This document shows, one piece after another, positions 9,269-55,083 of a stretch of DNA of 64,000 nucleotides. A program made the position numbers and the translations under genes. The notes below the pieces were generated by a model. That model had not been told where the DNA came from and searched no databases. It worked only from the letters and a program-made list of their open reading frames with translations. Every line of letters begins with the position of its first letter. Position 1 is the first letter of the stretch. The DNA is taken from the IMG/VR virus record IMGVR_UViG_3300029985_000038. The stretch is one strand, 5' to 3'. This DNA is from an uncultured virus (IMG/VR IMGVR_UViG_3300029985_000038). Taxonomy: Duplodnaviria; Heunggongvirae; Uroviricota; Caudoviricetes.

Positions 9269-9314
9269 ATCCCCAATAAATCCCCAATAAACAAACAAGA
9301 GGTATACTCAGATC

Positions 9315-38343: not shown

Positions 38344-39522
38344 ATGGGATTGAAAACGAAAAAAATTGATAGTTTTACACAACATTATATTGAGGGATTG
38401 TTATTGAGCGACGGAAGTATGTCTTGCAATAATATATATGACCCAAAAAACGGAGCAAGATATTCTCAAGCTTGCATTTGTTTATCTTGGCTTGAAGAAA
38501 TTGCTAAGGTTTTAAACAATTCAGGTCTTAAAGCTACAATTGTTTCAGAACCTAGAGATGTTGGTAAACCAATATGGAGATTATATACAAATTATTGTGA
38601 AGCTTTAAGACCTATTTACAATAGATGGTATCATGGAAGTAAACAAGTACCTAGAGATATTGAATTTACTCCAACTTTATTAAGAAATTGGTATTTAGGA
38701 GATGGTTCATCTTGCCGTTCGGGAGCTAATTTATATGCAGAGGGATTTACAGTTGATTGTGTGGAATTTTTAACACAAAAATTATCGTTATATTTAGAAA
38801 GTCCTGTAACTCATACTAAAAATAATAATATATTTTTACCAGTATCAACTAGAATAAAATTTATTGATTTAATTTTACAGGCGAATACAGTTCCCGCAAA
38901 CATGGAACATAAATTTATTTTTAATGCCGATATGGTACAGCCCAATAAAGCTGTATTGTTTGGAGTTTCTGGTAAAAAGCGACATGGCAAAGATACTACG
39001 TTTAATATTTTGTCAGAATTACATAGTGATAAAAATTTCTATAAATTAGCATTAGCAGATCCATTAAAAGAAGAAACTAGTAGAATGTTGGCAAATACTT
39101 ATGTTAATTATGATATAGATAGTTTGGCATGGGTTGAAATTTATAAAAAAATTCGTTTAGAAATGGACTTAGATGAAACCAAAGAAGAATATAGAGGTAT
39201 TAATGCTTGGTGGGGAACAGAATTTCGAAGAAATAAATTTAGTCAAACTTATTGGACGGATAGATTATATCATAGAATACAACAATTATTAGGATCTAAA
39301 TGTTATATTGGTTGTACAGATTTAAGATTTCCAAATGAAATGCAATTGATTAAAGATTTAGGTGGGAAAACAATTAGGATTAATAATCCTAGAATCCCCA
39401 TTCTACCTAATGAGCATATAAGTGAAACTGCTTTAGATGATTATGATGGTTTTGATTATGTAATTACTAATGATGGTACATTAGAAGATTTAAAGAATAA
39501 AATAAAGGAATTACAATTATGA
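38344..39522 (+). CDS. LAGLIDADG-like domain fused to deoxynucleoside monophosphate kinase
   Basis: GLLLSDGS and WYLGDGS; then GKKRHGKDT, ADPLK, DLRFPNE, HISE. Confidence 0.85.
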   Translation: MGLKTKKIDSFTQHYIEGLLLSDGSMSCNNIYDPKNGARYSQACICLSWLEEIAKVLNNSGLKATIVSEPRDVGKPIWRLYTNYCEALRPIYNRWYHGSKQVPRDIEFTPTLLRNWYLGDGSSCRSGANLYAEGFTVDCVEFLTQKLSLYLESPVTHTKNNNIFLPVSTRIKFIDLILQANTVPANMEHKFIFNADMVQPNKAVLFGVSGKKRHGKDTTFNILSELHSDKNFYKLALADPLKEETSRMLANTYVNYDIDSLAWVEIYKKIRLEMDLDETKEEYRGINAWWGTEFRRNKFSQTYWTDRLYHRIQQLLGSKCYIGCTDLRFPNEMQLIKDLGGKTIRINNPRIPILPNEHISETALDDYDGFDYVITNDGTLEDLKNKIKELQL

Positions 39523-40436: not shown

Positions 40437-41057
40437 ATGAAATTTTTTACAGGAGATACGCATTTTAAAGAAGAGGGTGTAATTATTAGGTCAAACCGCC
40501 CATTTATTGATATTGAGGAACATGATAAGGTTTTAATTGCAAATTGGAATAGTGTAGTTACACCAAATGACGATGTTTATCATTTGGGGGACTTTGCCTA
40601 TAATCCATTTTATAGAAATTCTAGTAAAGATACCGAAGATAAAGCTTATGAAACTTTTGCTGCGATTTTAGAACAGCTTAATGGGAGAATTCACTGGATC
40701 TATGGAAATCACGATCCAATTAAAAAGAAAAACTTAATGAGTGCTTTGAAGCAATATTTTGTTTGGACTGGAACACAATTAGAGATTAGCATTAGAGATG
40801 AAGATTTAGAAAGGAAAAATCAAAAAATTGTTTTACACCATTGCCCTTGGGAAGATTGGTATAATAAAGAAAGTTCATCATGGCAGCTTCATGCTCACAC
40901 TCATAACAAGTTACCAGATCGTCCTGATCTTTTAAGAATTGATGTTGGTGTGGATTGTCATAATTATACTCCTGTTTCTTATGAACAATTAAAAGAAAAA
41001 ATGAGTTATAAAACTTTTATTCCTCCTAAAAATAGGATGTTAAAAGCTACCAATTAA
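40437..41057 (+). CDS. Calcineurin-like metallophosphoesterase
   Basis: DTH, GD, GNHD, HAH, DVGVD. Confidence 0.9.
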   Translation: MKFFTGDTHFKEEGVIIRSNRPFIDIEEHDKVLIANWNSVVTPNDDVYHLGDFAYNPFYRNSSKDTEDKAYETFAAILEQLNGRIHWIYGNHDPIKKKNLMSALKQYFVWTGTQLEISIRDEDLERKNQKIVLHHCPWEDWYNKESSSWQLHAHTHNKLPDRPDLLRIDVGVDCHNYTPVSYEQLKEKMSYKTFIPPKNRMLKATN

Positions 41058-41515
41058 ACACTGGTAGCTTTTTCTTTTAATAATTGTTCTAAGGTTTTTA
41101 CATATCTTTCATCTTTAAATGGCATTAATTCTTGTAATTTTTTAATGCCTTCGTCTAACGAAAAATGTTCTTTTGCATAGCGATATATTTCATGCCAAGG
41201 TTCGTGGATGGTTAAAATTTGATGTGGTGCAACATCATTAAATTGATAAACATCACTTTGTAAATTTTTAGGATTTTCCCAATATTCAACTACAGGCTTA
41301 ATCCAATTTGGGAAATTCGGACTAGACCAAATAGCCCTTGGATCGCCATATTTATAACTCTCTGATTTATCTAAACGTAATCCTTCATTTCTTAATGCAT
41401 CTAAATCGTCAGTTTTAGTATAATGGAATCTTCTTGACATTCCTTCTGGTATTGGTAAATTCCCAGGTTTATGAATTTCATTATTTGTTGAACTAATTAT
41501 TTTTCTATACCACAT
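41054..41515 (-). CDS. MWYRK-leader protein, possible ADP-ribosyltransferase-like fold
   Basis: FHYT......LRNEGL pattern. Confidence 0.5.
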   Translation of the reverse strand: MWYRKIISSTNNEIHKPGNLPIPEGMSRRFHYTKTDDLDALRNEGLRLDKSESYKYGDPRAIWSSPNFPNWIKPVVEYWENPKNLQSDVYQFNDVAPHQILTIHEPWHEIYRYAKEHFSLDEGIKKLQELMPFKDERYVKTLEQLLKEKATSV

Positions 41516-41591
41516 ATTTAAAATTTCGTGTATTTTGAATAATTACCTTTAAACTTATTTGATCATTTTCTATTGACTTCTATAACAGGGA

Positions 41592-41963
41592 GTGGTTATA
41601 ATGAATGAGATGAATACAAAAACAATTATCGTAATTGTGTTAGGTCTATTTCTTGCTGGTGGTTTATTCTATGGATTAACTTTAGCTGGTTATGGTTTTA
41701 GCACAAAAGTCGTTGCACCACTTGAGGGAAACTTAGCTCAAGCAAATGCGGAAGCACAAAATAAAGCTTTCAAATCTTCTATCCCCTATATTGAATCTCG
41801 TAATACGCGAATTTCTCAATATATTTACCAATACAAAAACTCAAAAGACGAAGTTGCTAAAGCAGGGATTTTATCAGAAATCAATGATATAGCAAATGAA
41901 GTTTTAGATAAATCTAAACTATCGTCTAGTAATCAATCGTTTTTACAGGAGCATGGATTATGA
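41592..41963 (+). CDS. Membrane-anchored protein
   Basis: N-terminal hydrophobic helix. Confidence 0.7.
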   Translation: MVIMNEMNTKTIIVIVLGLFLAGGLFYGLTLAGYGFSTKVVAPLEGNLAQANAEAQNKAFKSSIPYIESRNTRISQYIYQYKNSKDEVAKAGILSEINDIANEVLDKSKLSSSNQSFLQEHGL

Positions 41964-42508
41964 AAACAACATTATGGTTATTACCACTCATTATTGTCGT
42001 AATTGGCTGTGCGCAGAATCCAACTGTTAACGAAAAAGAATCTGTTGCACAAGATGTTATTCAACAAAATCTTAATTCAAAAGTTGGTGGAGCGCCAAAC
42101 ATTACAAATGGTACAGATAAATTAACTGTAAAGAAAATTTATGAAAAGCGTGATCAAGCTAATTTAATCACGTATGTTTATTCTGAAGATATGGTGGGTA
42201 TTCTTCATTTTAGGTTTAGAGCCAAAGGTTACCCTACTTGTTTAGCAACACAATGGTCCGCTCCTACAAAATGGACTTATGGTGGTTCCACTCGTGGTTA
42301 CTATCAAGAACCCCAGGCTGAGCCTAATGGTATTTATCCTCCAGCTACATCAGAAGGTGATTATATTCTTGCTATTGATGAAAACAACCCAAGTGTTGAT
42401 CATTTAGTGTTTTTTGAACCACGATGGGTTGTTTATGATTATCCTGTATCATATTTAAATCAAACTCCATTAATTGTTGATGGAAAGACGCTAATTTCAG
42501 GAAAATAA
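41960..42508 (+). CDS. Lipoprotein
   Basis: Signal peptide with VIGC lipobox. Confidence 0.75.
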   Translation: MKTTLWLLPLIIVVIGCAQNPTVNEKESVAQDVIQQNLNSKVGGAPNITNGTDKLTVKKIYEKRDQANLITYVYSEDMVGILHFRFRAKGYPTCLATQWSAPTKWTYGGSTRGYYQEPQAEPNGIYPPATSEGDYILAIDENNPSVDHLVFFEPRWVVYDYPVSYLNQTPLIVDGKTLISGK

Positions 42509-42523
42509 GGGTATAATAAGAAC

Positions 42524-42586
42524 ATGAAAGTAAGAGTAATGGTTATGGTAGTGGAAATGGAGGAACGTGAAGTAGAGACTTCATGA
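42524..42586 (+). CDS. Leader peptide MKVRVMVMVVEMEEREVETS (putative attenuator of tRNA cluster 1)
   Basis: TATAAT 42512-42517, ATG 6 nt later; 15 of 20 codons are Val/Met/Glu. Confidence 0.8.
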   Translation: MKVRVMVMVVEMEEREVETS

Positions 42587-42612
42587 CCATCTAGCTTTTA
42601 GAAATGCTCTTA

Positions 42613-42653
42613 AAGAACCCAGATGGTAAGAACTATCTGGGTTCTTGTTGTTT
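42613..42653 (+). terminator. Terminator with competing antiterminator
   Basis: AAGAACCCAGATGGT / ACTATCTGGGTTCTT; ACCATCT (42586-42592) is complementary to AGATGGT (42621-42627). Confidence 0.8.
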
Positions 42654-42656
42654 ATT

Positions 42657-42905
42657 ATGAAAAAAGATAAAAGTAAAATAAAGGAATGGTTGAGTTTCGC
42701 AAGAGAACAAAAGAAAAGTCATCTTTTAATTATTGAACAAACGTATAAAGGAATTAAAATTCCAGTATACATCAATAGAAAAGAAGATTTAGAAAAAACC
42801 ATTAATGATTACTCTAGTCTTAGTAAGGTAAATATTTTGGAAATATATAATACAAATTTAGATCCAAATATACAATTAAATAGCGTTAAGAATTGGGAAA
42901 AATAA
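42657..42905 (+). CDS. Hypothetical protein at head of tRNA cluster 1
   Basis: ORF track, ATG after terminator. Confidence 0.6.
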   Translation: MKKDKSKIKEWLSFAREQKKSHLLIIEQTYKGIKIPVYINRKEDLEKTINDYSSLSKVNILEIYNTNLDPNIQLNSVKNWEK

Positions 42906-42932
42906 AAAACTTTTGAAAATTAAATAATATTA

Positions 42933-43006
42933 CCTCGGTTGGCGCAATTTGGTAGCGCAACTCATTTACATTGAGAAGGTTGTAAGTTCAAATCTTACAC
43001 TGAGGA
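42933..43006 (+). tRNA. tRNA-Val(TAC)
   Basis: CCTCGGT/ACTGAGG acceptor; loop TTTACAT; GTAAG-TTCAAAT-CTTAC. Confidence 0.85.
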
Positions 43007-43016
43007 CGAGAAATAT

Positions 43017-43093
43017 GGCGGCATAGATTAGTGGCTTAAATCGCTTCGTTCTCACCGAAGAAATCACGGATTCGAATTCCGTTGTCGCTACCA
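43017..43093 (+). tRNA. tRNA-Glu(CTC), encoded CCA
   Basis: GGCGGCA/TGTCGCT; CTTCG-TTCTCAC-CGAAG. Confidence 0.9.
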
Positions 43094-43113
43094 CGAGAAA
43101 TACGAGATAAAAT

Positions 43114-43202
43114 GGCGGTGTCTTCCAAGGGTAGGAAACCGGACTTTCTAAGGCAAAGGCTTTAGAAATCCGTAAATCGGAGTTCAATTCTCCGCATCGC
43201 TA
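43114..43202 (+). tRNA. tRNA with 25-nt anticodon loop (18-nt insertion); Glu(TTC) if removed 3' of the anticodon
   Basis: Normal acceptor, D and T arms; loop 43144-43168 holds a 10-bp hairpin. Confidence 0.7.
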
Positions 43203-43231
43203 CGAGAGGTATAGGAGGTATAGGAGGAAAC

Positions 43232-43429
43232 ATGAAACGTACAATTAAGTTATTTTACAACGATAAAGTAGTTGGCACTATTTATGCAGACAAAGATGAA
43301 CCTTGGAACTCTATTCAAATGAGAGGATTCCAAAAGTTACAAATGGATGCAATTAGTCCCAATAGTAGATTATTCGCCGTCAAGCTTCAACGAGATAAAT
43401 TGAAGTGCGTGGAACAGGCAGTCGCGTAA
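43232..43429 (+). CDS. Hypothetical protein within tRNA cluster
   Basis: AGGAGG SD. Confidence 0.65.
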   Translation: MKRTIKLFYNDKVVGTIYADKDEPWNSIQMRGFQKLQMDAISPNSRLFAVKLQRDKLKCVEQAVA

Positions 43430-43439
43430 TTGCCAAAAT

Positions 43440-43517
43440 ACAACAACATAGTTTAATTAAAACACCTGGTCGTCTTGGACTGGGAGAGTGCAGATTTGGA
43501 TTCTGGCTGTTGTTGTA
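43440..43517 (+). pseudogene. Degenerate tRNA-like element
   Basis: ACAACAACA/TGTTGTTGT closing stem, D-, anticodon- and T-like arms, CGAGA trailer. Confidence 0.5.
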
Positions 43518-43701
43518 CGAGAAAAACATGAATATAAAATCAGATAATCGTAAAATAAAAAGAAAATCATTAAAAGAAACAAGATGTATGGATTGTAAAA
43601 AAACCTTGGGTTTATGAAGGTTTAGATGATAGAAATTAAATAGAGTTAACTTTCGCAGAAGAAGACGCTTTCAATTAGTCCTAATGCGAAACGAGATGTA
43701 C

Positions 43702-43770
43702 GGCTAGTGCCTGGGGTAAGGGCTGGTTTTTCATAAGAATCGGAAATGGGTTCGAATCCCATACTAGCTA
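43702..43770 (+). tRNA. Compact tRNA with CAT anticodon (Met or Ile2)
   Basis: GGCTAGT/ACTAGCT; loop TTCATAA; ATGGG-TTCGAAT-CCCAT. Confidence 0.75.
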
Positions 43771-43983
43771 CGAGAATTTATAGTTTCCAGTAACAGCAAG
43801 CCATTATCAAACTCTCTGTGACAGTTTGGGCATAGATATATTAAATTATTTATATCGTTTATTTCACTTAATTTGATGTCATTAGAAAAATCCTTTACTG
43901 CTTTAATATGACAAGTGTCAACAAATTTATTATAACTACAATTTTTACAAGGCTTACCACGATCTAGATATTAATCCGTAATA

Positions 43984-44808
43984 TCAAACCCAAACTTTAT
44001 GGATATTATTTGGGTTTAAATACATTCCCGTATTCATAAAGGCAGTAATAACAAATCTTAATTTGTGATCCACTATTTCGTTTGTTAGATAAAAATTTCC
44101 TAAACCAAATGAATACATTTTCCCTGAATTATTATGGAATAGTAATGGCATATTTTTTTCTACCATTGTTGTACTAACCATAATTTTAGTTTTATGGAAT
44201 GTTCCGTAAATTTGAGTTTTAAGAATATCCACTTGATCTTCATTAACAATAAAATCTTTTCTAACATCTGATCTTTTATAATGCATGAAATCTTTGCCAG
44301 TTTGTCCATTTGGAAATTTAAAATTTCCATAATCTTTTGGATGTAAGACTAAATATCCTTCCATACTTTTTGAAATTTCTTCTAATTCTTCCCAACCAGT
44401 TAAGGGTGTTATTAACTTATAGTGATTTACTATAGATAGTTTTATTTTAGTTTGTAATTGTCTATCTAACGAATCCCTAATTTTTATTATTAATCTTTCG
44501 TTTAGGTATTCTCTATGTTTAGAGTTGTTTTGTTTGAAAATTTCATCCAAATAGACATGACATTCTAATGGAATTTTTGCTATGAAAATTTCACTACCTT
44601 CAACTAATGGGGCATTATCAATTAATGGCATTATGTATTTATCGTTTTCTGATTTTTTAACTCTTAGAATTTCTTCGTTAGTGTGAGGTTCGTTGTTAAA
44701 TAATTTATAAACCCAGTTGGTGTCGATAATTTCCTGAAAAAATGGATCAGTTTTTTCGTGGGCGATAGGCTTAAAAGCCCATAGAATTTCTTCTGTTATA
44801 TTAATCAT
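43984..44808 (-). CDS. Hypothetical protein, possible divergent major-capsid-protein paralog
   Basis: LHPKDY...ILKTQIYGTF....IMVS resembles HK97-fold A-domain pattern. Confidence 0.4.
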   Translation of the reverse strand: MINITEEILWAFKPIAHEKTDPFFQEIIDTNWVYKLFNNEPHTNEEILRVKKSENDKYIMPLIDNAPLVEGSEIFIAKIPLECHVYLDEIFKQNNSKHREYLNERLIIKIRDSLDRQLQTKIKLSIVNHYKLITPLTGWEELEEISKSMEGYLVLHPKDYGNFKFPNGQTGKDFMHYKRSDVRKDFIVNEDQVDILKTQIYGTFHKTKIMVSTTMVEKNMPLLFHNNSGKMYSFGLGNFYLTNEIVDHKLRFVITAFMNTGMYLNPNNIHKVWV

Positions 44809-44911
44809 ATATTTTCCTTGGTTCATCACCAAATGAAACTTCATCAGTTTCAAGGTTAGTATAATTAAAATCATACTTGATAATCCAAAATTATGGTATA
44901 CTTCCTTCATT

Positions 44912-45298
44912 ATGGGACATTGGAGTGAAGAACCTTACGATAATGATGGCGCAATGGATTTATTGCCAGATTATCACTATGCTATTTTTAAAGCTATTAA
45001 GCAACAAGTTGACAAATGGGATTTAACAGACTTAAATCGTTTCCCATATGATGCAATCAGATGTACAGCACAATACATCATTGATTATTTAGAAGTGTTT
45101 TCCGTAGATACTGACGATGCCTATTTGGTGTGCGTAAAGATACTTGAAGCGTTAAATATCATTGATAATTCTACTTATTTTGAATGTTGGCGCGATCCAG
45201 TAGCTTTTCGTACCTCATTAGAGGGTATGATTGTTAGAATGAAAGATATTGAATCGAAACAAAAAGAAGTATATGATTTGTTTAGTGGTGATGAATAA
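44912..45298 (+). CDS. DUF4259-like protein
   Basis: MGHW....YDNDGAMD start. Confidence 0.6.
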   Translation: MGHWSEEPYDNDGAMDLLPDYHYAIFKAIKQQVDKWDLTDLNRFPYDAIRCTAQYIIDYLEVFSVDTDDAYLVCVKILEALNIIDNSTYFECWRDPVAFRTSLEGMIVRMKDIESKQKEVYDLFSGDE

Positions 45299-45873
45299 TG
45301 GCTAAAATTTTAGAAACATCTTTAGAAACACAGGTGCGTATGGCAGAAGCTTTGCGTCAACTGTTGTCGTTGTTGGATTTTAGACCAGAATTCGGACCAA
45401 ATAAAAAGAGTTTTAAGGATACGGACTTCCAAAATGAAGATGGTACACCTTGTGAACTTTTTGATGGATGGATTAGCACCTTTTTATACAAGGAAGATAG
45501 TCGGAGTGTTACGGGTAAAATTGAATGTCTCAGGCGCACATTGGAAGGTGCGGAAACTGGAGAGATTTTAGTTGATTATCTTAATGTCTGTGATCAAGTA
45601 ATGAAAAAATCTTGGAATATTGAAAGTAAGTTTAAAAAGCTATCTAGTCTTATCAATACTCCAGAAAACGAAAGCACATACATCAAAGATGAAGTAAGAC
45701 GACAAGAAACAATTAATAAGAGTATTCAGTATACTCTTAAAGAACTTGAGCAAGATTTATCTGAATTCAATGACTTTAAGTATAAAGCTACACAATGTCG
45801 CAATAAACTTAGAGACGTAAAATTAGTTGAAGAAGTCAACGGTGTACAAACAGATAAAAGGGAATGGGAATGA
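45298..45873 (+). CDS. Hypothetical protein
   Basis: Coupled TAATG start. Confidence 0.7.
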   Translation: MAKILETSLETQVRMAEALRQLLSLLDFRPEFGPNKKSFKDTDFQNEDGTPCELFDGWISTFLYKEDSRSVTGKIECLRRTLEGAETGEILVDYLNVCDQVMKKSWNIESKFKKLSSLINTPENESTYIKDEVRRQETINKSIQYTLKELEQDLSEFNDFKYKATQCRNKLRDVKLVEEVNGVQTDKREWE

Positions 45874-46384
45874 CATGGGTATGAAATTATTAAATGACGT
45901 AGAAACTTTTCGTGCTAATATTGAGGCTAAGGGCGCGGTGTCTGTTTTTGATTCATTGGTGTCAGACTATCGTTCAGAAAAGGCGGGTATTGAATCTCAG
46001 ATAAAGAGAGAATATAAATGGGATAGGTCTGGATTTTTAGCCAAGATTTCAGGTTGGATTATTGCGGGTATTTTAACTGCTAGTATTGTTGTTTTTTGGA
46101 GCTATATTGGGTTATCTAATGCTCAACTAAATCAAGATCAATATTATTTCAATATTCAAAAAAAAGAATTTGCCAATTATCAAGACTCTGAAAACAGTAA
46201 ATTTGCGATATATAAAAATAGCGAAATGAATCGTATTCATAATATAGAAATTGAAATGAAGAAATCCAATGATGATACAGTGCTAAAAGAACAGGCTTAT
46301 ACTGAAAAAATGCGCAGAATGCTTATTGCGCACGGTATTGATCCAGATCCTAATTGGCGTTCTGGTTCACCAATACAAAAATAA
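45827..46384 (+). CDS. Membrane protein
   Basis: One TM helix; start uncertain. Confidence 0.65.
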   Translation: MKKSTVYKQIKGNGNDMGMKLLNDVETFRANIEAKGAVSVFDSLVSDYRSEKAGIESQIKREYKWDRSGFLAKISGWIIAGILTASIVVFWSYIGLSNAQLNQDQYYFNIQKKEFANYQDSENSKFAIYKNSEMNRIHNIEIEMKKSNDDTVLKEQAYTEKMRRMLIAHGIDPDPNWRSGSPIQK

Positions 46385-46604
46385 TAATGTATAACAGCTA
46401 TATGAGTTTCAGTTTAGACGAAGATTCAATAAAGCCAATTAAAGTATTAGACAGTTATTTGACAAACATTGCCAAAACACCAGCCGATAATCCACTTGTT
46501 ATAGCAGTAAAAGCCGCTATAACAAGTGAATCTGCATCAGACATAGACAATGTGTGGTATTATTTATATGAAGAAGAAGAAGACTTAGGATTCAAATTCG
46601 ACAT

Positions 46605-46895
46605 ATGGGTAATGAAAAATTATGGACAATAATATTCCGCATTAAATTATTAGATTTTGTAAATAAAAACATTGACGATATTGATACAATTGTTGTTCAT
46701 TGTCATGCGGGATGCTCTAGATCAGCAGGTTTAGCATGTATTTTATCGAAAATCTATAATAATCAAGAGAGTTGGTTTTGGGAAAACCCAGAATTAAGAT
46801 GTAATACTCTAGTTTACAAAGTAACCTTAGAGTATTTTAACGAAACTGTAGACAAAGATAAACGTCTACAAACAGTATTGGAGGAAGATGTATGA
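46605..46895 (+). CDS. Protein-tyrosine-phosphatase-like protein, apparently N-truncated
   Basis: HCHAGCSRSAG (CX5R). Confidence 0.65.
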   Translation: MGNEKLWTIIFRIKLLDFVNKNIDDIDTIVVHCHAGCSRSAGLACILSKIYNNQESWFWENPELRCNTLVYKVTLEYFNETVDKDKRLQTVLEEDV

Positions 46896-47179
46896 AAAAA
46901 AGTTTATTATTAATTCTAGCAAGTTTGATGTTGGTATCTATGTCGTTTGCGCAAGATGGCAAAATCATCAGGCGTATTAAAATTCGTAGCGCAGATCCAT
47001 ATTTTATCGCTATGATGTTGGCTGGTCGTCAAAATTACAATTTAGCACCAGAAACCTCTACTATTCTAAAAACTAATTTAGGTGGTGGAAGATCAGGAGG
47101 ATCAGGTAGTTTCGGTGGTTTCGGATCAGGTTCAGGATCAGGTGGTTTTGGTAGCGGTGGTCGCGGCAACGGTGGTTAA
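46892..47179 (+). CDS. Secreted small protein with Gly-rich tail
   Basis: Signal peptide ending SFA; GGFGSG repeats. Confidence 0.75.
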   Translation: MKKSLLLILASLMLVSMSFAQDGKIIRRIKIRSADPYFIAMMLAGRQNYNLAPETSTILKTNLGGGRSGGSGSFGGFGSGSGSGGFGSGGRGNGG

Positions 47180-47206
47180 TTTTAATGGCACTATTTGATA
47201 GTGCCA

Positions 47207-47539
47207 TTAAAATAGTTTTTGAACCGTGAAAGACCCTCTTTGTGTGATTGATAAATCGCCAGAAGCATTGAATAAAAATTTATATTGTCCAGCTACTGTT
47301 GTAAGCCAATCTATATAGTAGGTTCCTGTAATATTTAAGTTATTTCCATCGTTGCAATAGTGTAATACTCCAATACCGTCTGGTTCAGGGGTTGTATATG
47401 TGACGACAGTTGGGGATGTAGCACCAGGAATTAGCATGGTGAATGTTAATGTGGCTGGATTATAAGGAACCCCACAGTCTGTTGTTATTACACATTCTAA
47501 GCGAATTGTAGTTCCACTTTCAAAAACATTTGTTATCAT
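47207..47539 (-). CDS. Probable virion protein (Ig-like/baseplate-upper-like)
   Basis: TGTYY...AGQY.F pattern; structural operon context. Confidence 0.55.
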   Translation of the reverse strand: MITNVFESGTTIRLECVITTDCGVPYNPATLTFTMLIPGATSPTVVTYTTPEPDGIGVLHYCNDGNNLNITGTYYIDWLTTVAGQYKFLFNASGDLSITQRGSFTVQKLF

Positions 47540-47578
47540 GGTGTATCTATTATTTAATAAAAACTATGATTAAAACCT

Positions 47579-49549
47579 TTAACTAGTGATATTAATTGTC
47601 ATATTTGATCTTGGGCTAATACTTATTTCCATGTTATATGCAATATTACTAATTGACATATTTGATCTTGGAGATACCGTGGCGTACATCTTACCACTTA
47701 AAACATTAAATGTAAACATAGGTTTATAAATAAAGGCTATACTTTTAATGCCAATAGGCAAAACAGTTTGTGGTGTTTCTAAAACTGGATAACCAAAAGC
47801 TATTACACTGTTAATGCCATTTGGTGATAATTGTGCAGAAGGTAAACCGAGAGAGGCGAATCCAAAAGCAATATTCGAAGAAATACCACTTGTATTAGTT
47901 GTTATGTTACCAGATACTGTTGATGTACCAAAAGCAATATGTGAATTTAGTCCTAATGGACTAATTATTACTTCTCCTGCTTGTAAAATTTGTGATCCAA
48001 AAGCTATATGTGAAGCTAAACCAGCTACAGACAAGACGCTAGAAGATATTATGGTGTTGTTACCAAAAGCCATGTGTGAAGCAATGCCTGACACACTTAA
48101 AGTGAAATTACTTGGCACCATTGATGGTAAACCAAAAGCTATGTTTGATGGAATACCTGAAACTCCAAAAGTAGTACTTCCTCCAGCTATTGAGTGTACT
48201 CCAAAAGCGATATGAGAAGCCAATCCTGTTAAGTTTAATGTTGTGGAACTAGATAGCGTATGCGCTCCGAAAGCTATATGCGAGGTTAATCCACTAGGAT
48301 TGATTATAACTACTCCAGGGGTCAACACATGTGATCCAAAAGCGATATGAGAAGCTAATCCACTTGGACTTACTGTGGCTGTTCCAGGGGTTAGTGTGTG
48401 TGATCCAAAAGCGATATGTGAAGCTAACCCTGTTACTGTAATTGTTTTAACACTAGATAATGTATGTGATCCAAAAGCAATATGAGAAGCTAATCCACTT
48501 GGACTAATGTTTACTGTTCCAGGGGTTAATGTATGTGATCCAAAAGCAATTTTAGAAGCAATACCTACAGGGAAAACACTTGCTGTTCCAGGGGTTAATG
48601 TATGTGATCCAAAAGCTATATGTGAAGTTAAACCGCTTGGACTAATGTTTACTGTTCCAGGGGTCAACGTAGGCGCACCAAATGCTATATGAGAAGTTAA
48701 TCCACTTGGACTAATGTTTACTGTTCCAGGGGTTAATGTATGTGATCCAAAAGCTATATGAGAAGTTAACCCATTAGGGCTAACTGTAACTGTTCCAGGC
48801 GTTAAAGTGTCTGAACCAAAAGCAATTCCTGAAGCAATTCCACCTGGGCTGAGTGTTATTGTGACTATTCCTGGTAAAAATGATACGATGATAGATTGAC
48901 AGTAGAAACTACTTGAAAAACTTGCACTAAATCCTTGACTGCTAGAATAAGATCCTGTTGAACTTTCATTTGCATAAGCAAATTGGCTTAAAGAATTAAC
49001 AGATCCTGCACTAGATTCTGTATTAATAGATGTAAACGAATTAACAGGTGAACCACTATAATTTTGTGGAGATCCTTGATAAATATTATTCATGAACGCT
49101 ACAACAAGTTCATTGTTATTGTTAACGCCAACACTGCTTGTGGTACATGTTGCTGAAGTTCCACTTTGAAGACTTTGATTATTAGATACATAAGCATCAA
49201 CAACGGTACTTGTATCTACACCAGAAAATTCTGCAATTTGAGCCTGAATAGATTGACCAGAAGAACCTCCACTGCCAAAATTAACAGCGACGTTAGTTCC
49301 TGCTGATGCCCCAACAATTCCATAATATAAATATATTGTATATGATACAGAATAATTACTTATCTGAGATGTAATTAGTGTCCAAGTAACATTTGTTTGG
49401 GTAATAGATGGAACACCAGCGGCAGTTGGACCAATAACGCCCATAACCATAACGTTTCCATTGGTTGGGGCTGATACAGTTAAGTTTAATGTGAAGGCAC
49501 CAATGCCAATTGTACCATTATTCTTAGCATTATTAACAAGTGTAGCCAT
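47579..49549 (-). CDS. Virion protein with tandem ~23-aa repeats (GL.SHIAFGSHTLTPGTV.ISP)
   Basis: Repeats visible in protein and as ~69-bp DNA units. Confidence 0.8.
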   Translation of the reverse strand: MATLVNNAKNNGTIGIGAFTLNLTVSAPTNGNVMVMGVIGPTAAGVPSITQTNVTWTLITSQISNYSVSYTIYLYYGIVGASAGTNVAVNFGSGGSSGQSIQAQIAEFSGVDTSTVVDAYVSNNQSLQSGTSATCTTSSVGVNNNNELVVAFMNNIYQGSPQNYSGSPVNSFTSINTESSAGSVNSLSQFAYANESSTGSYSSSQGFSASFSSSFYCQSIIVSFLPGIVTITLSPGGIASGIAFGSDTLTPGTVTVSPNGLTSHIAFGSHTLTPGTVNISPSGLTSHIAFGAPTLTPGTVNISPSGLTSHIAFGSHTLTPGTASVFPVGIASKIAFGSHTLTPGTVNISPSGLASHIAFGSHTLSSVKTITVTGLASHIAFGSHTLTPGTATVSPSGLASHIAFGSHVLTPGVVIINPSGLTSHIAFGAHTLSSSTTLNLTGLASHIAFGVHSIAGGSTTFGVSGIPSNIAFGLPSMVPSNFTLSVSGIASHMAFGNNTIISSSVLSVAGLASHIAFGSQILQAGEVIISPLGLNSHIAFGTSTVSGNITTNTSGISSNIAFGFASLGLPSAQLSPNGINSVIAFGYPVLETPQTVLPIGIKSIAFIYKPMFTFNVLSGKMYATVSPRSNMSISNIAYNMEISISPRSNMTINITS

Positions 49550-49605
49550 AATTATTGTGTCCTAATATAAGATTCAATAATTATGGCTATATAACCTATA
49601 AAAAA

Positions 49606-49872
49606 TTATAGTGTTGTTACGGCTTCTTCTGAATGTATTCCTCCTGCAACAAGTGTTTGTGCTTCAGGTAGGGATTTTGTTAAAATTTTATGTAGAGTAG
49701 CAATTTCTTCAGGTGATAAGTCTTTTATTTTATCTTTTAGATCATTTTCATGAATTTTTGCATCATAGGCACTGACTACATCAGTTAATTCGGTACGTAA
49801 TGTAGCGATTTGTTGTTGTAGTTCAAGGCGTCTTGCTTGTAATTGTTCGGTTGTTAATTCAGTGTAATTCAT
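49606..49872 (-). CDS. Small coiled-coil protein
   Basis: ORF track. Confidence 0.65.
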   Translation of the reverse strand: MNYTELTTEQLQARRLELQQQIATLRTELTDVVSAYDAKIHENDLKDKIKDLSPEEIATLHKILTKSLPEAQTLVAGGIHSEEAVTTL

Positions 49873-49873
49873 T

Positions 49874-50188
49874 TTAATAATTTCCTATAATACTTTTTAT
49901 AATATCTTCTTGAATATCCTTTGATAAGTTATTAAAACTTATACATGATCTAGCTCTGCTTACTGCCTCTTCTAATAAATCTCTTACTCTTGATCCTACT
50001 GGATCTTTTTTAGATTTATTGTGAATTACCCATAATTCTAGATTTTCTATTCTATTATCGTCTCTAATACCGTTTTTATGATAAATTCTTTCATCTTTAT
50101 GTAACTGTCTTTGAAGATATTGCTCCATTATATAACGATGTTCTTGTACCCATTGTTGAGATTTTAAACCATTATTTTTATTATACAT
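49874..50188 (-). CDS. HNH endonuclease, short or degenerate
   Basis: EHRYIME...YHKNGIRDDNRIENLELW. Confidence 0.8.
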   Translation of the reverse strand: MYNKNNGLKSQQWVQEHRYIMEQYLQRQLHKDERIYHKNGIRDDNRIENLELWVIHNKSKKDPVGSRVRDLLEEAVSRARSCISFNNLSKDIQEDIIKSIIGNY

Positions 50189-50208
50189 ATTCTAATGGAT
50201 GATACCTA

Positions 50209-50610
50209 TCACAACACGAATATTTTGTTCGCCCCTGAGTCCCATTGAATCGTAATATTTCCTGAGTTTGGTGTTATAGGTAAGTTAGAAGCAGTATCAA
50301 AGTAAGCAATTAATTGAGAAGTACTATCTGTTCCAGTGTTTGCATAAATCACAAAGTAATCAACTGTAGCACCAGTAACTGAGGAAAAAGTAACATTAGC
50401 TGCATTTGCAACACCACCAGTGCTTGTAACACTCGTTAGGGAACTAGAACGTGCAACGATGTAAGAGGCAATTGTGGAAACATATTGATCAGTAGCAAGG
50501 TTAACAGTATAGCTACTATTAACTAGTGCAACACGAAGATCCGCTGTTGCCCAATCAATACCGCCGTTTAAAAATGATTGTCTAGCCAAAGTGTATAAAG
50601 CGTTTGCCAT
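50209..50610 (-). CDS. Virion/tail-associated protein (MANALY type)
   Basis: LIAYFD...LPITPN.GNITIQW motif; SD present. Confidence 0.7.
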   Translation of the reverse strand: MANALYTLARQSFLNGGIDWATADLRVALVNSSYTVNLATDQYVSTIASYIVARSSSLTSVTSTGGVANAANVTFSSVTGATVDYFVIYANTGTDSTSQLIAYFDTASNLPITPNSGNITIQWDSGANKIFVL

Positions 50611-50709
50611 TTAATTTTTCTCCAATATTTTATTATTCGTGTCGGTTAATACAAACCCTTTAATTTGATAATAAAATCTATAAAATTTTGAAACATGGTA
50701 TAATAAGGC

Positions 50710-51492
50710 ATGTCTTTATTTCGCGTAACTTTCACTGGAGTTGATGGAAAAACTGATTTAAGAAGATTAAATCAGTTGTCAACTGATTATCCCTTTATTG
50801 AATGGGGTGTATTGTTTTCTAGATCAAAGCAAGGTTTAGAAAATCGTTATCCAAATCTTAATGTAATTGCTGATTTTGTAAATCTAGAAAAGCCAATTAA
50901 ATCCGCACATATCTGTGGCAATTGGACTGGAGAAAACCGTAATTATCAATGTCCTCGTGATATAGCTAAAGCACTTTATGATTTATTTGGTGGATTCAAT
51001 AGGTATCAATTTAATATTAGTAATGCCAAAGATGCCCACAGTTATGAAATCTTTCATCAAAACGTGGTTAATTGTGATAATCTACCTTTTTATCAAGGTG
51101 GATTTGTCAACTATCCTAAATTCATTCTTCAAAGTAAGAGTTTTAATTTAACTCAACAAACAATAGAATTATTGAGCTATATACGTGATTACGATGGTAA
51201 TGTACATAATTCAAACCACAACGATCCATTAATCCATGTGCTTTTGGATAATTCAGGGGGCATAGGTAGGGTTTTAGACATCGTAGCTCCACCTGAAGAC
51301 TTTAGATATACCCCAGGTTATGCAGGAGGCATTAATCCTGAGAATGTTGCAGAAGTGATTGGTAAAATTGAAGCCTTAAATCTTAAACAGGATTATTGGA
51401 TTGATATGGAAACAGGCGTAAGAATAGATGATTGGTTTGATTTAGACAAATGTGAAGCTGTAGCCAAGATTGCTAAACAATTTATACACTAG
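50710..51492 (+). CDS. TrpF-like TIM-barrel protein
   Basis: D.SGG.G, GYAGGINPENV, WIDMETGVR. Confidence 0.7.
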   Translation: MSLFRVTFTGVDGKTDLRRLNQLSTDYPFIEWGVLFSRSKQGLENRYPNLNVIADFVNLEKPIKSAHICGNWTGENRNYQCPRDIAKALYDLFGGFNRYQFNISNAKDAHSYEIFHQNVVNCDNLPFYQGGFVNYPKFILQSKSFNLTQQTIELLSYIRDYDGNVHNSNHNDPLIHVLLDNSGGIGRVLDIVAPPEDFRYTPGYAGGINPENVAEVIGKIEALNLKQDYWIDMETGVRIDDWFDLDKCEAVAKIAKQFIH

Positions 51493-51530
51493 TTGAAATA
51501 CTAGTGTATAAATATATGGGAGGTACAAAT

Positions 51531-51668
51531 ATGGAATCAATGCAATCAATCAAAGGAATACTTCTTATAGCCGCAGTTATATTATTTATAGTCGCATCAT
51601 GGCTTAATAATTCAAAAGTCGCATATGCTGGTTTGGCATGTTTCGCGGCTTCCCAGTTGCCAATCTAA
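51531..51668 (+). CDS. 45-aa membrane peptide
   Basis: GGGAGG SD; translated by hand (MESMQSIKGILLIAAVILFIVASW...). Confidence 0.65.
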   Translation: MESMQSIKGILLIAAVILFIVASWLNNSKVAYAGLACFAASQLPI

Positions 51669-51736
51669 AAAAGTCTAGAAAAAGTAGTAAAACCCAAAGA
51701 AACCTGGGTATAATAAGAACAGTTAGGAAAACTATC

Positions 51737-51808
51737 ATGAAAACACAAGTCGCCACAATTATTATTGCAGCCGCAGCAGCGATTATCGCTGATGCCGAAC
51801 TTGGGTAA
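51737..51808 (+). CDS. Leader peptide MKTQVATIIIAAAAAIIADAELG (putative attenuator of tRNA cluster 2)
   Basis: TATAAT 51709-51714, AGGA SD; 8 Ala, 5 Ile, 1 Val codons. Confidence 0.82.
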   Translation: MKTQVATIIIAAAAAIIADAELG

Positions 51809-51835
51809 CTAAAGATAGTAACTAAACTAATCAAC

Positions 51836-51870
51836 AAAAGACTCAAGTTCAAGAAACTTGAGTCTTTTTT
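51836..51870 (+). terminator. Terminator with competing antiterminator
   Basis: AAAAGACTCAAGTT / AACTTGAGTCTTTT plus U tract; GAACTTGGGT (51797-51806) pairs with ACTCAAGTTC (51841-51850). Confidence 0.88.
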
Positions 51871-51894
51871 GTGTTTTGTAGTTACGAGATGAAT

Positions 51895-51971
51895 GGGGAG
51901 TGGGACTGCTTTGGGGTGGTCGTTTCTATGGCATAGAAAACACTAGACGGGTTCGATGCCCGTACTCTCCA
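51895..51971 (+). tRNA. tRNA-Ala(GGC)
   Basis: G3:U70; TTTCT-ATGGCAT-AGAAA. Confidence 0.85.
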
Positions 51972-51982
51972 CGAGAATAAAT

Positions 51983-52054
51983 GGGGGATTAGCTCAGCGG
52001 GAGAGCGGGACTTTTGCAAAGTTCAGGTCAGGGATTCGAATTCCCTATCCTCCA
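51983..52054 (+). tRNA. tRNA-Ala(TGC)
   Basis: G3:U70; loop TTTGCAA; canonical cloverleaf. Confidence 0.92.
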
Positions 52055-52065
52055 CCGAGATAAAT

Positions 52066-52137
52066 CGCCGTATGTCGAAATGGGAAAGAAAATGCCTGAT
52101 TAGCGTTCATGACTGGGTTCGATTCCTAGTGCGGCGA
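52066..52137 (+). tRNA. tRNA-Ile(GAT)
   Basis: CGCCGTA/TGCGGCG; AATGC-CTGATTA-GCGTT. Confidence 0.8.
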
Positions 52138-52165
52138 CGAGAAAATTGATTTCAAATATCGTGCT

Positions 52166-52348
52166 ATGAAAAATATAAATCAATATAAAAAAGAAAATGA
52201 GCGTTTAATTTCATTACTTAAAAAAGTCCAATGGAATGCAGAACCTAATTGTTGTGGTGCATGTGTTTATTGTTATTGTTATGAATGGGAAGAACATAGC
52301 GAAGATTGTGAATTAAATAATTTATTACATGAAAATATAGGAAAATAA
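52166..52348 (+). CDS. Small Cys-rich protein
   Basis: ORF track. Confidence 0.6.
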   Translation: MKNINQYKKENERLISLLKKVQWNAEPNCCGACVYCYCYEWEEHSEDCELNNLLHENIGK

Positions 52349-52349
52349 T

Positions 52350-52685
52350 ATGGAAAACTTAATGCAAAGATTTTTGGAAAAAACAGACGAAACCGGAAGA
52401 TTTATGGTATACTCTAAAAAGACTGGTATCAAGTATTTTGTTGAGCCTATTATGGGTGGAGAAAGAAGATCTTGGGGCGATCTTATCCCTGGTAAATCTG
52501 GTGCTGGAATTGAAGGTGATTATGGTTCTAAATATTTAGGAGCAGTTCACAAAGAAGACTCTTTAATAACAGAAGAAAATGGTTTTAAGAATATTGAATT
52601 GTTAGGTAGAGGGGTTAGTCCTCATGGAACAATTCATGAGGTAGATGACGAAAGATATGCTCAAGGTTTCAGACCAAGAGCATAA
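52350..52685 (+). CDS. Conserved phage hypothetical protein
   Basis: ORF track. Confidence 0.75.
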   Translation: MENLMQRFLEKTDETGRFMVYSKKTGIKYFVEPIMGGERRSWGDLIPGKSGAGIEGDYGSKYLGAVHKEDSLITEENGFKNIELLGRGVSPHGTIHEVDDERYAQGFRPRA

Positions 52686-52709
52686 TGATCAAATCCCAAC
52701 GAGATAAAT

Positions 52710-52778
52710 GGGGGATGTACGGGGTGTACTTCTGACACTTGCAATGTCGGCAAAAGGATTCGAGTTCCTTATTCTCCA
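52710..52778 (+). tRNA. Compact tRNA-Ala(TGC) with 6-bp anticodon stem
   Basis: G3:U70; CTGACA-CTTGCAA-TGTCGG. Confidence 0.8.
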
Positions 52779-52791
52779 CCGAGATAAATAT

Positions 52792-52881
52792 CTCCTGCTA
52801 CCTCAACGGCTAGAGGACTCGACTGAAAAATCCAGAGATTTTTCTAATTGAGCTATCCAAGTTCGATTCTTGGGCGGGAGA
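52792..52881 (+). tRNA. tRNA with 25-nt anticodon loop (18-nt insertion); Phe(GAA) or Arg(TCT) after removal
   Basis: CTCCTGC/GCGGGAG; loop 52823-52847 holds an 8-bp hairpin. Confidence 0.7.
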
Positions 52882-52896
52882 CGAGAAAAATTGTAC

Positions 52897-52972
52897 TAGA
52901 ATATAGTTTTGCGGAAAAACACAGTTTTGAGATTAATACAACTGGGACGTAAGTTCGACTCTTACTATTCAT
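52897..52972 (+). pseudogene. Degenerate tRNA-like element
   Basis: GTAAG-TTCGACT-CTTAC T arm; CAGTT/AACTG stem with 13-nt loop. Confidence 0.45.
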
Positions 52973-53056
52973 AGACATAGGTTGGAATGTTGGTTGGCTA
53001 CCGTGTCTTAATCCGCGATACAGTTCGATTCTGTATAATAATTTCTAACCGAATCT

Positions 53057-53128
53057 GGGCGCATAGATCAATGGCAGATCGCAAACTTGACAGGTTTGAG
53101 GTTATGGGTTCGAACCCCATTGTGCCCA
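53057..53128 (+). tRNA. tRNA-Val(GAC)
   Basis: GGGCGCA/TGTGCCC; CAAAC-TTGACAG-GTTTG. Confidence 0.92.
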
Positions 53129-53157
53129 CGAGTAAAATGTGGTATACTGATTATCTT

Positions 53158-53358
53158 ATGACAGTGTATTTATTAGTTAAAGGAAGAAAAGTTTTCCATA
53201 ATGATGGACCAATGGACGAAGAAGAGTATACAACTACCGAATTAGATCCTGTAGAAATTACTTTTTCCGAATCAAAAGCTAAAGCTTGGAATGAACAAGA
53301 TAAAACTATGTATGGCTTTAAAGCTTTTGAAGTTACAGGAGAACCAGATCAGGTATAA
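53158..53358 (+). CDS. Hypothetical protein
   Basis: Start revised, after GGTATACT. Confidence 0.65.
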   Translation: MTVYLLVKGRKVFHNDGPMDEEEYTTTELDPVEITFSESKAKAWNEQDKTMYGFKAFEVTGEPDQV

Positions 53359-53364
53359 TAAAAC

Positions 53365-53655
53365 ATGATTCAAAATATTATTATTACAAATGGTGTCAAG
53401 ACCGCATCTTGTGAAATTTTAGGAACACCTAAATTTCCATACAATATAGATAATATCTCATTTCATGAGATTCCCGGTTATGGTTTAAACGATTTTTCGT
53501 ATGATGTTCTTGGTTATTTAATTGATGCCGATCAAAGAGTTTGGGTGAAATTACAAGAAAATGTTCCATTTCGTGAAACTACAATGGAAGAATTAACAGC
53601 CTATCAATTAGAATCCGTTAGAAAATGGGACTATTTGATAGTGCCATTAAAATAG
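53365..53655 (+). CDS. Hypothetical protein
   Basis: GGTATAAT-N5-ATG. Confidence 0.7.
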   Translation: MIQNIIITNGVKTASCEILGTPKFPYNIDNISFHEIPGYGLNDFSYDVLGYLIDADQRVWVKLQENVPFRETTMEELTAYQLESVRKWDYLIVPLK

Positions 53656-53924
53656 GAGATTATCCTTTAGCTACAGTCGTTATTACTTCACCAGAAGTGC
53701 GTTTTACAATTAAAGGCACATATTCTGGAAAGGATATTCCTAATATATTTGAATATGCTGATGACAATGGTTGTACTAAAGATTTTATAAAATGGTTAAA
53801 ATCTAACAATATTAAGTGCCGTGATCAAAAGGTTGGCGATTCTTATTCTTTCACTGTTAATGCTAGAAGTGCGGTTGGGGTAAGACAATGGTTTTATGAT
53901 AATGAGGTTAAAACACAATCATGA
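53625..53924 (+). CDS. Hypothetical protein
   Basis: ORF track. Confidence 0.6.
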   Translation: MGLFDSAIKIGDYPLATVVITSPEVRFTIKGTYSGKDIPNIFEYADDNGCTKDFIKWLKSNNIKCRDQKVGDSYSFTVNARSAVGVRQWFYDNEVKTQS

Positions 53925-54140
53925 CAATGAACCTTCAAGAAGAATATGATGATTTAATTTCGGGATGGAGCCATTTTACAGATGCTCATAAAGTTTTCTT
54001 TGATTATTTGAATGCAATGTTAACAGAAGAACAAAAAGAAAAACTTATAAACAAAGCAAGATTAACTGTGCTTGAATTAAGCTTTCCAAATCAGTAAGAT
54101 CAACAAAGGAAAGTTTAATGGTTTATGTGTACATAAAGTT

Positions 54141-54332
54141 ATGGCACAATTAATCTTATCGTCCACAGAACCAGCAAAAGTACTTAAACTTGTTGAACAA
54201 CTATTTCCAGGTGTTGATCTTAAAATTATAGAAGGTATCATCTCAGGTATTGAATTAGACGGAACTTTAAATGCTACAGATACAGCTTCTGGCGTTACCC
54301 TATCAGTCACCATCAATAAAGCACCTAAATAA
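54141..54332 (+). CDS. Hypothetical protein
   Basis: ORF track. Confidence 0.6.
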   Translation: MAQLILSSTEPAKVLKLVEQLFPGVDLKIIEGIISGIELDGTLNATDTASGVTLSVTINKAPK

Positions 54333-54333
54333 T

Positions 54334-54753
54334 ATGGAAGTTAGCGCAAATAAACAAGATATACTTGCGTACATAACCCTAGCTAATAAACATTTTAATT
54401 TAGGCATTGACCAAGTGATAGAAGTCCTTAATAGTGATGCTACTATTAATAATGACATCTATATTAAGTACCCACTACCTTTGGGTGCTTCTGTCACCAT
54501 GACTTTAGGTATAACTGCTGGTGATGGTTATTTAGAGGTTAATATTGAAAACCCTAAAGCTTTCGGTATGGGTGGTTTTGGATTATTACGTGTTGCAATA
54601 GCCGCAGTTATTTTAAAAAAATTAAATCCATATCAACATGTTCTTACAAGTTACAAAGCCAAAAATGGTAATTTACATTTTGGATTTCCTGGTGTAAATA
54701 TTACATCAGGAACATGTAGTAATGGCACATTATTTATTGACATTACTCTATAA
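54334..54753 (+). CDS. Hypothetical protein
   Basis: Start revised to coupled ATG. Confidence 0.65.
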   Translation: MEVSANKQDILAYITLANKHFNLGIDQVIEVLNSDATINNDIYIKYPLPLGASVTMTLGITAGDGYLEVNIENPKAFGMGGFGLLRVAIAAVILKKLNPYQHVLTSYKAKNGNLHFGFPGVNITSGTCSNGTLFIDITL

Positions 54754-55083
54754 TTGAGTATGGATCAAGTACACCCAAATTTGATTAATCAAATTAATCA
54801 AATTAGAATTGATAAATATATTAGTCTTTATTTTTGGATTAAAGGTGACGAAATAATGACGACACGGTTGAGTGACGGATTCTATTTATTGGTTGCTGAT
54901 ACACCTTTAGGTGCAGTTGAAATGCTTAGGCGTTTTCAGGTTGATTGCGAACAATGGACTATGAAATATTACAGTCCTAGTTATTTAGATTGCGTGAGAG
55001 AAGAATTCCCACAACAACAGATTTTAGGATATTTAATTTGGTCTACCAGAAAACCTCTTAAATTAGTGGATTTTGTTGATTAG
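54754..55083 (+). CDS. Hypothetical protein
   Basis: ORF track. Confidence 0.6.
   Translation: MSMDQVHPNLINQINQIRIDKYISLYFWIKGDEIMTTRLSDGFYLLVADTPLGAVEMLRRFQVDCEQWTMKYYSPSYLDCVREEFPQQQILGYLIWSTRKPLKLVDFVD

Follow-up and report, generated by a model that had tools for sequence, protein, structure and literature searches.

The 64,000 nucleotides (nt) of DNA from an uncultured Caudoviricetes virus analysed here (IMG/VR record IMGVR_UViG_3300029985_000038; the window) carry two arrays of phage tRNA genes, and upstream of each array lies a short open reading frame (ORF) followed by an intrinsic terminator. We refer to these two assemblies as unit 2, which is the main subject of this analysis, and unit 1, its sibling at 42.5 kb. 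Both are probably ribosome-mediated leader-peptide transcription attenuators that gate the phage tRNA blocks behind them and, thus, provide a demand-driven feedback on tRNA supply. The pattern of unit 2 is real and non-random, and the sequence analysis supports the attenuation mechanism that had been put forward in a preliminary description of this DNA.

Unit 2—like all features of the two units on the plus strand—opens with a promoter-like box (GGGTATAATAAGAAC, 51706–51720) that contains TATAAT as a −10-like element and lacks a clear −35 element. This box was not listed by a sigma-70 scan, which requires both hexamers. The identical sequence heads unit 1, and these are its only two occurrences in the 64 kb at up to two mismatches, where 0.28 would be expected by chance (two or more were found in 3 of 100 shuffles). 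A Shine-Dalgarno-like AGGA (51725–51728), read from the sequence, lies 8 nt 5′ of the ATG of the leader ORF (MKTQVATIIIAAAAAIIADAELG, 51737–51808). Among its 23 codons are three GCC, three GCA, one GCG, one GCT, four ATT, one ATC, and one GTC. Ala, Ile, and Val hence make up 14 of 22 codons (binomial P 7e-6), which is reached by none of the 17,766 22-residue segments that can be taken from the ORFs of the stretch itself (maximum 13). All 14 are concentrated in a sensor run of 16 codons at 51749–51796. The last sense codons together with the first base of the stop codon (51798–51806) constitute the 5′ strand of an antiterminator, whose partner at 51841–51849 belongs to the 5′ arm of the terminator and is, therefore, common to both structures. 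The terminator with its U tract spans 51836–51877, with a 14-bp stem and a 5-nt loop at 51836–51868. Its stem follows the leader stop after 27 nt, and the first tRNA begins 26 nt past the stem. This distance, which is 10–25 nt in several relatives, leaves no room for a separate promoter between the terminator and the tRNAs. The downstream tRNAs match 10 of the 22 leader codons when default tRNA calls are used and 15 with relaxed calls. All parts named in the preliminary description—promoter, 23-codon ORF, codon counts, terminator, and tRNAs—are found in their places, and the pairing it had proposed between the ORF end and the 5′ arm of the terminator is recovered in the folds as 51798–51806 with 51841–51849.

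Unit 1 bears the same 15 bases (GGGTATAATAAGAAC, 42509–42523), which here directly abut the ATG of the leader ORF (MKVRVMVMVVEMEEREVETS, 42524–42586). Judging from this arrangement, the ORF possibly starts at the expected transcription start on a leaderless mRNA. Val, Glu, and Met account for 14 of its 19 codons, a share not attained in any of 18,138 segments of the ORFs encoded in the 64 kb. The antiterminator strand (42586–42596) begins within the stop codon, at its last base, and pairs with 42614–42627, and the intrinsic terminator with its T-rich tail (42614–42654; 14-bp stem at 42614–42645) again lies 27 nt past the stop. An 86-amino-acid (aa) ORF is situated between the terminator and tRNA-Val(UAC), the first gene of the cargo at 42933–43771, which further comprises tRNA-Glu(CUC), a tRNA-like gene (43115–43200), a 65-aa ORF, and tRNA-Met(CAU). 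The amino acids used by the two leaders are nearly disjoint, and each leader fits its own array: the match is 0.53 to the own set versus 0.05 to that of the other array for unit 1, and 0.45 versus 0.00 for unit 2.

The correspondence between leader and tRNA set is observed far beyond this one phage. Units were collected by a rule that ignores composition and demands a terminator whose stem has 10 or more pairs, a tRNA at most 500 nt downstream, and, as the longest ATG-initiated ORF, one of 12–50 codons that ends 15–35 nt 5′ of the stem. This rule is strict, and ARAGORN at default settings overlooks odd tRNAs. A first set comprised 15 units from the 64-kb stretch and six contigs of unrelated phages, and a replication set added 10 further unique units among 80 metagenome loci. 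Two of these units (G003 3408 and G004 2772) are doubtful, as they resemble homologous small proteins; they were retained in all counts. The own-set codon match was 0.307 in the first set, compared with 0.113 ± 0.024 for permuted sets (reached by 0 of 100,000 permutations), and 0.364 in the replication set, compared with 0.194 ± 0.029 (0 of 50,000). For all 25 units, it amounts to 0.330 versus 0.138 ± 0.017 (z 11.4; 0 of 50,000), and without units 1 and 2 to 0.316 versus 0.142. The signal is limited to the frame of the ORF (0.33), as the +1 and +2 frames of the 25 units yield 0.106 and 0.087. When sets were permuted within phages, 2 of 1,152 arrangements reached the observed match, which are the identity and a trivial tie. 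Leader codons and anticodon content, whose covariation in related phages had been named as a check in the preliminary description, hence covary strongly by all three measures—across the 25 units, within phages, and in the replication set.

This covariation is apparent by eye. A leader with the sensor part ...SRSSRSRSWSSRSSS... precedes tRNAs for Ser, Phe, Met, Arg, Ser, Ser, and Trp; ...HTQPQPQQHPQ... is followed by Pro, His, Pro, His, Gln, and Gln; ...ILLQQLQLLQL... by three Gln and four Leu; and ...YYKQYYYK... by Lys, Lys, Tyr, and Lys. The leader peptides are not conserved in sequence; it is their composition that follows the local tRNA set. Between stop codon and terminator stem, 20 of the 25 units have 21–27 nt, and all of them 18–32 nt.

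Two alternative structures are seen in the predicted folds of 14 units. The remaining unit of the first set (G007 2759, MIFKFYRQSVAM, 1 of 11 codons matched) was left out of the folding and retained in the permutations; it lies 5′ of the stronger G007 2964 unit, and both have the same tRNA set. Full-length minimum-free-energy (MFE) structures contain at least seven terminator pairs in 13 of the 14 units, and all 14 stem pairs in units 1 and 2. With the 3′ arm removed, 12 of the 14 units, all except unit 1 and G007 2964, show base pairing between the 5′ arm and the 3′ part of the ORF. The mean stabilisation by the antiterminator is −5.67 kcal/mol, compared with −2.43 ± 0.52 kcal/mol after dinucleotide shuffling (none of 200 shuffle sets reaches the value of the 14 units); for the antiterminator of unit 2 alone, p = 0.025.

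The effect of a translating ribosome was modelled by masking 30 nt around each A site, a footprint whose size is assumed. In these masked folds, the antiterminator is worth 8–17 kcal/mol with the A site at or before the sensor run and collapses past it; for unit 2, it is available while the A site lies within 51749–51796. Matched codons are enriched in the antiterminator-permissive zone, where they make up 96 of 238 codons, versus 32 of 182 outside (Fisher p = 4e-7). A ribosome at the stop codon makes the antiterminator unavailable in 9 of 14 units, among them both unit 1 and unit 2, and the terminator forms in these two. The two conformers that the preliminary description had predicted are thus reproduced in the masked folds of both window units and most relatives—the antiterminator is masked by a stop-bound ribosome and free when the ribosome stalls. 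No clear 1:2 pause hairpin appeared in the folds; the nearest candidate is 51740–51751, which pairs weakly with the same partners in the ribosome-at-stop fold and is otherwise not part of the MFE structure.

According to the proposed mechanism, transcription from the common box or from upstream would enter the short ORF, whose middle would consist of codons of the tRNAs encoded downstream and whose end codons would double as the antiterminator 5′ strand. If decoding is quick, the ribosome would reach the stop and cover this strand, allowing the 14-bp terminator to form and RNA polymerase to halt before the tRNAs. If cognate charged tRNAs are scarce, slow decoding would make the ribosome stall upstream, the antiterminator would take the 5′ arm of the terminator, and the tRNA block would be transcribed. 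As a stalled ribosome would yield tRNA transcription and a fast one termination, the circuit would represent a negative feedback in which each block is made on demand. We infer that the leader ORF is translated, that the switch runs in this direction, and that a shortage of charged tRNAs is its physiological trigger; to see host anticodon nucleases behind such a shortage is speculation.

RNA evidence is available for parts of the locus. The stretch is present in DNA runs of peat metagenomes, and small shares of it in three RNA runs. RNA contigs from two metatranscriptome studies cover 51544–51754 and 51583–51753. Both cross the box at 51706–51720, which indicates that transcription from upstream also enters the leader. 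A further contig over 52906–53047 points to a stable RNA in which the insertion of a tRNA-like gene is retained. Neither a terminated nor a read-through transcript was seen among the RNA contigs over the locus, whose uncovered parts are uninformative. A DNA contig continues past 51753/51754, the positions at which the RNA contigs end; the assembly may have broken off at the low-complexity run of codons, or the RNA may really end here.

Several observations weigh against an attenuator of this kind. Both RNA contigs end 17 nt into the leader ORF and not at the terminator, which has to be read with the limit that contigs cannot show true ends. In unit 2, 7 of the 22 leader codons are unmatched, and some downstream tRNAs are without any leader codon. 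The codon match is also weak at the synonymous level: of 71 codons in four- and sixfold families, the anticodons of the unit read 57, where 51.5 are expected (z 1.7). Of the earlier proposal that supply is read "codon by codon", the part that stands is the match of each leader to its own tRNAs by amino acid, and the finer claim on synonymous codons finds nothing beyond these counts; the leader–tRNA match is essentially one at the amino-acid level. Unit 1 has no 5′ UTR (untranslated region), a Shine-Dalgarno sequence is missing in most relatives, and the antiterminator of unit 1 is absent from unmasked folds (ddG −0.4; 0 arm bases paired) and appears in ribosome-masked folds only. Compared with shuffles, the antiterminator individually reaches 0.025 or less in only 7 of 14 units (unit 2 included, unit 1 not); in the full-length MFE of G006a, the terminator is beaten by the antiterminator; and a ribosome at the stop codon leaves the antiterminator available in 5 of 14 units, given the assumed footprint. 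Lastly, many tRNA arrays carry no unit, including those of G005, G008, G010, and phage DLP6, with G003 and G004 doubtful, and the 53 tRNA-bearing loci among the 80 metagenome loci yielded 12 units only.

How far do other explanations account for these data? For trp- and his-type leaders, it is established that an attenuator reads the availability of charged tRNA and does not distinguish low tRNA from low charging. The switch could, thus, be real and selected for amino-acid starvation or general translation stress rather than for tRNA supply. We consider this unlikely, as the cargo consists of tRNAs, which bring no relief of amino-acid starvation, and as the leader of each block fits its own tRNAs even inside one phage.

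The sign of the switch is a separate matter, since codon matching alone does not set it. Efficient translation of the leader, aided by the phage tRNAs, might suppress the terminator and lead to more tRNA transcription, that is, to positive feedback. A ribosome closely trailing RNA polymerase is able to suppress a terminator a few bases after a gene (PMC4824070). In all 25 units, however, the stop codon lies 18–32 nt before the stem and out of the reach of the ribosome—a gap across which a ribosome terminating at the stop could not block the hairpin. Moreover, the competing strand is located downstream of the sensor codons, where a ribosome that has moved beyond them masks it. Positive feedback is, hence, quite improbable.

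A third explanation would regard the short ORFs as genes of small functional peptides whose fit to the nearby tRNAs is mere co-adaptation, and the hairpin as a leaky terminator of the upstream operon. In its favor, a 54-aa membrane-like ORF (51504–51668) is positioned directly 5′ of unit 2, the RNA contigs run on into the leader, and the peptide of unit 2 is hydrophobic. On the contrary, the peptide of unit 1 is rich in Val, Met, and Glu and not membrane-like, peptide sequences vary while their composition tracks the local tRNA set, and neither the 21–27-nt spacing nor the antiterminator signal would be explained, which makes this explanation very unlikely. Short low-complexity ORFs are abundant in AT-rich phage DNA, yet a chance neighborhood of such an ORF, a terminator, and a tRNA array can be rejected, because no permutation or sliding window attains the observed values and the same 15-mer heads both units.

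The leader-and-terminator design, for which we favor ribosome-mediated attenuation, is widespread: uncultured jumbo phages carry it in samples of peat, soil, sediment, and gut, and at least one cultured phage has it too. Ralstonia phage RsoM2USA (MG752970.1) bears an unannotated unit on the reverse strand (9196–9309 of our locus L155), with the leader MFNAFNNNQRQNQAAMFDVRAIAFNAKNDIKGVALVE, a 25-nt gap, and a terminator at 9335–9362. Its tRNAs start 16 bases later and form a block of eight: Met, Ile, Asn, Asn, Gln, Lys, Arg, and Phe. The feature table of MG752970.1 lists no tRNAs in this stretch, and the words "terminator", "attenuat", and "leader" do not occur in the description paper of this phage (PMC8504454).

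Other routes to relatives were less productive. A first screen for low-complexity short ORFs as a unit finder was too noisy for use. A scan of viral contigs for the 15-mer of the box found it at 34 loci, most of which are unrelated and lie within genes; two of them have tRNAs and neither of these a leader. In contig L009, the same 15-mer stands straight before tRNAs without a leader. The sole blastn match of the region to phage records is a tRNA-Ala of phage DLP6. The upstream 260-aa protein as query found one distant relative, which is without tRNAs, and the CCA-adding enzyme as query found none. No tRNA lies within 20 kb in the uncultured record L156.

Each phage repeats its own short box 5′ of its leaders: TTAACTATTTA in G001, TATATAAT in G002, and, in G006, TACCTTTG, which resembles the −7 promoter motif of Bacteroidota. 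In the regions of G001, G006a, and G007 (L055–L058, L068, L070–L071), ARAGORN calls tRNAs with the anticodons CUA and UUA as suppressor type, a hint that stop codons are read through or recoded in some relatives.

The array of unit 2 combines regular tRNA genes with several odd ones. tRNA-Ala(GGC) at 51895–51972 is found by ARAGORN at a relaxed threshold only and called neither by its default nor by Rfam; it has a cloverleaf fold (z −2.6) and, by reading of the sequence, a G3–U70 pair. Default ARAGORN calls are tRNA-Ala(UGC) at 51983–52056, tRNA-Ile(GAU) at 52066–52138, a second copy of tRNA-Ala(UGC) at 52710–52780, and tRNA-Val(GAC) at 53057–53129. Two ORFs of 60 and 111 aa lie within the array at 52166–52685. 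Relatives of the 111-aa ORF (52350–52685) sit in the tRNA arrays of more than 100 phage contigs from many habitats and of phages DLP6 and RsoM2USA; in DLP6, the array with this homologue is accompanied by no unit within 18 kb. Its product matches no Pfam or PHROG family and may be a tRNA-related factor.

Three tRNA-like genes had no place in the preliminary description. The one at 52792–52882 folds into a cloverleaf with a 25-nt anticodon loop, for which ARAGORN gives the anticodon "gaaa", and would correspond to a tRNA-Phe(GAA) with an 18-nt insertion. A Leu(GAG) gene (52897–52973), whose anticodon loop is enlarged by an inserted 6 nt, is called by relaxed ARAGORN, and a further tRNA-like gene is perhaps located at 52975–53050. 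The first two and the tRNA-like gene of unit 1 (43115–43200) are cloverleaves with anticodon-loop insertions, which give loops of 25 nt (7 + 18) in two cases and of 13 nt (7 + 6) in one. In all three, the insertion forms pairs with the anticodon region. These genes could be carriers of mini-introns, decoys, or pseudogenes.

A spacer resembling CGAGA(A/T)AAAT stands beside nearly every tRNA at 43007–43527 and 51885–53138 and may be a processing signal. Of the 21 matches to CGAGAWAAAT in the 64-kb stretch, 12 fall in these 2 kb of arrays, all on the plus strand. The motif is not enriched over the whole 64 kb, where 14.2 matches are expected; it clusters in the arrays only. CCA is not encoded in the tRNA genes, and the phage carries a CCA-adding enzyme at 31997–33964.

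The stretch as a whole has a G+C content of 34% and encodes, besides this enzyme, a helicase, a ligase, and a tail-like repeat protein. The closest cultured phage is at 32% identity, judged by the helicase. A transposase-like ORF (27541–28776; phrog_506, E 1e-110) lies within the phage DNA, and the ORF at 38344–39522 encodes a deoxynucleoside monophosphate kinase whose N-terminal part resembles a LAGLIDADG homing endonuclease. The tail-like protein (47579–49549, minus strand) has 656 aa with about 20 repeats of a unit of about 23 residues (...SHIAFGSHTLTPGT...).

Control of tRNA genes is usually thought to act at the promoter. If the attenuation proposed here is correct, the leader peptide would sense decoding capacity and feed it back directly, and phages would produce each block of tRNAs when it is needed, with the units acting as modular, programmable "tRNA-shortage" switches. 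Why phages carry tRNAs is debated between codon compensation and the escape from tRNA-targeting defences (PMC10264068). A more far-reaching idea, which we regard as a tentative possibility, is that splitting the tRNA repertoire into separately gated blocks with bespoke multi-amino-acid test peptides creates a multiplexed real-time meter of host decoding. Such a counter-defence sensor would replace the tRNAs that are running short, including those cut by host defence nucleases, and the tRNA-like genes with loop insertions might be nuclease-proof or act as decoys.

In the open full-text literature, as far as it was accessible and with subscription journals outside this scope, no description of leader-peptide attenuation of tRNA genes was found for phages or cells. 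Rfam leader families gave no match over 41000–55000 at E values up to 1, nor over 51850–53200, a range that begins past the leader, at E values up to 10; a T-box was likewise not matched in Rfam over 41000–55000 at E values up to 1. The units would, therefore, belong to the same mechanism class without being members of those RNA families, and we think it likely that they are a known type of switch that here has tRNA genes as cargo.

The transcription attenuators of the enterobacterial amino-acid operons—trpL, hisL, leuL, thrL, ilvL, and pheL—are the leader-peptide systems to compare with. The phage units resemble trpL- and hisL-type leaders in their short ORF with runs of regulatory codons, their intrinsic terminator, and an antiterminator that would be set by the position of the ribosome, and they mix several amino acids as the multivalent thr and ilv leaders do. 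However, they are phage-borne, use up to about seven amino acids per leader tailored to the tRNA block, and gate tRNA genes instead of biosynthetic enzymes, so that the sensed molecule would be the product itself. The pheM-pheST system of Escherichia coli shares with them the leader-peptide attenuation of a component of the decoding apparatus. There, phenylalanyl-tRNA synthetase is controlled by the signal of one amino acid, whereas the phage units would gate tRNAs, and several species of them together. Like T-box riboswitches, they would read the state of specific tRNAs by a terminator/antiterminator switch and control translation-related genes; unlike a T-box, which itself contacts the uncharged tRNA and works without an ORF, they show an in-frame codon signal. 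Ordinary phage tRNA clusters, finally, are ungated and transcribed from early or middle promoters. With these, the arrays described here have in common the dense tRNA genes, the small ORFs, and the phage CCA-adding enzyme, and they differ from them by the leader ORF and terminator in front.

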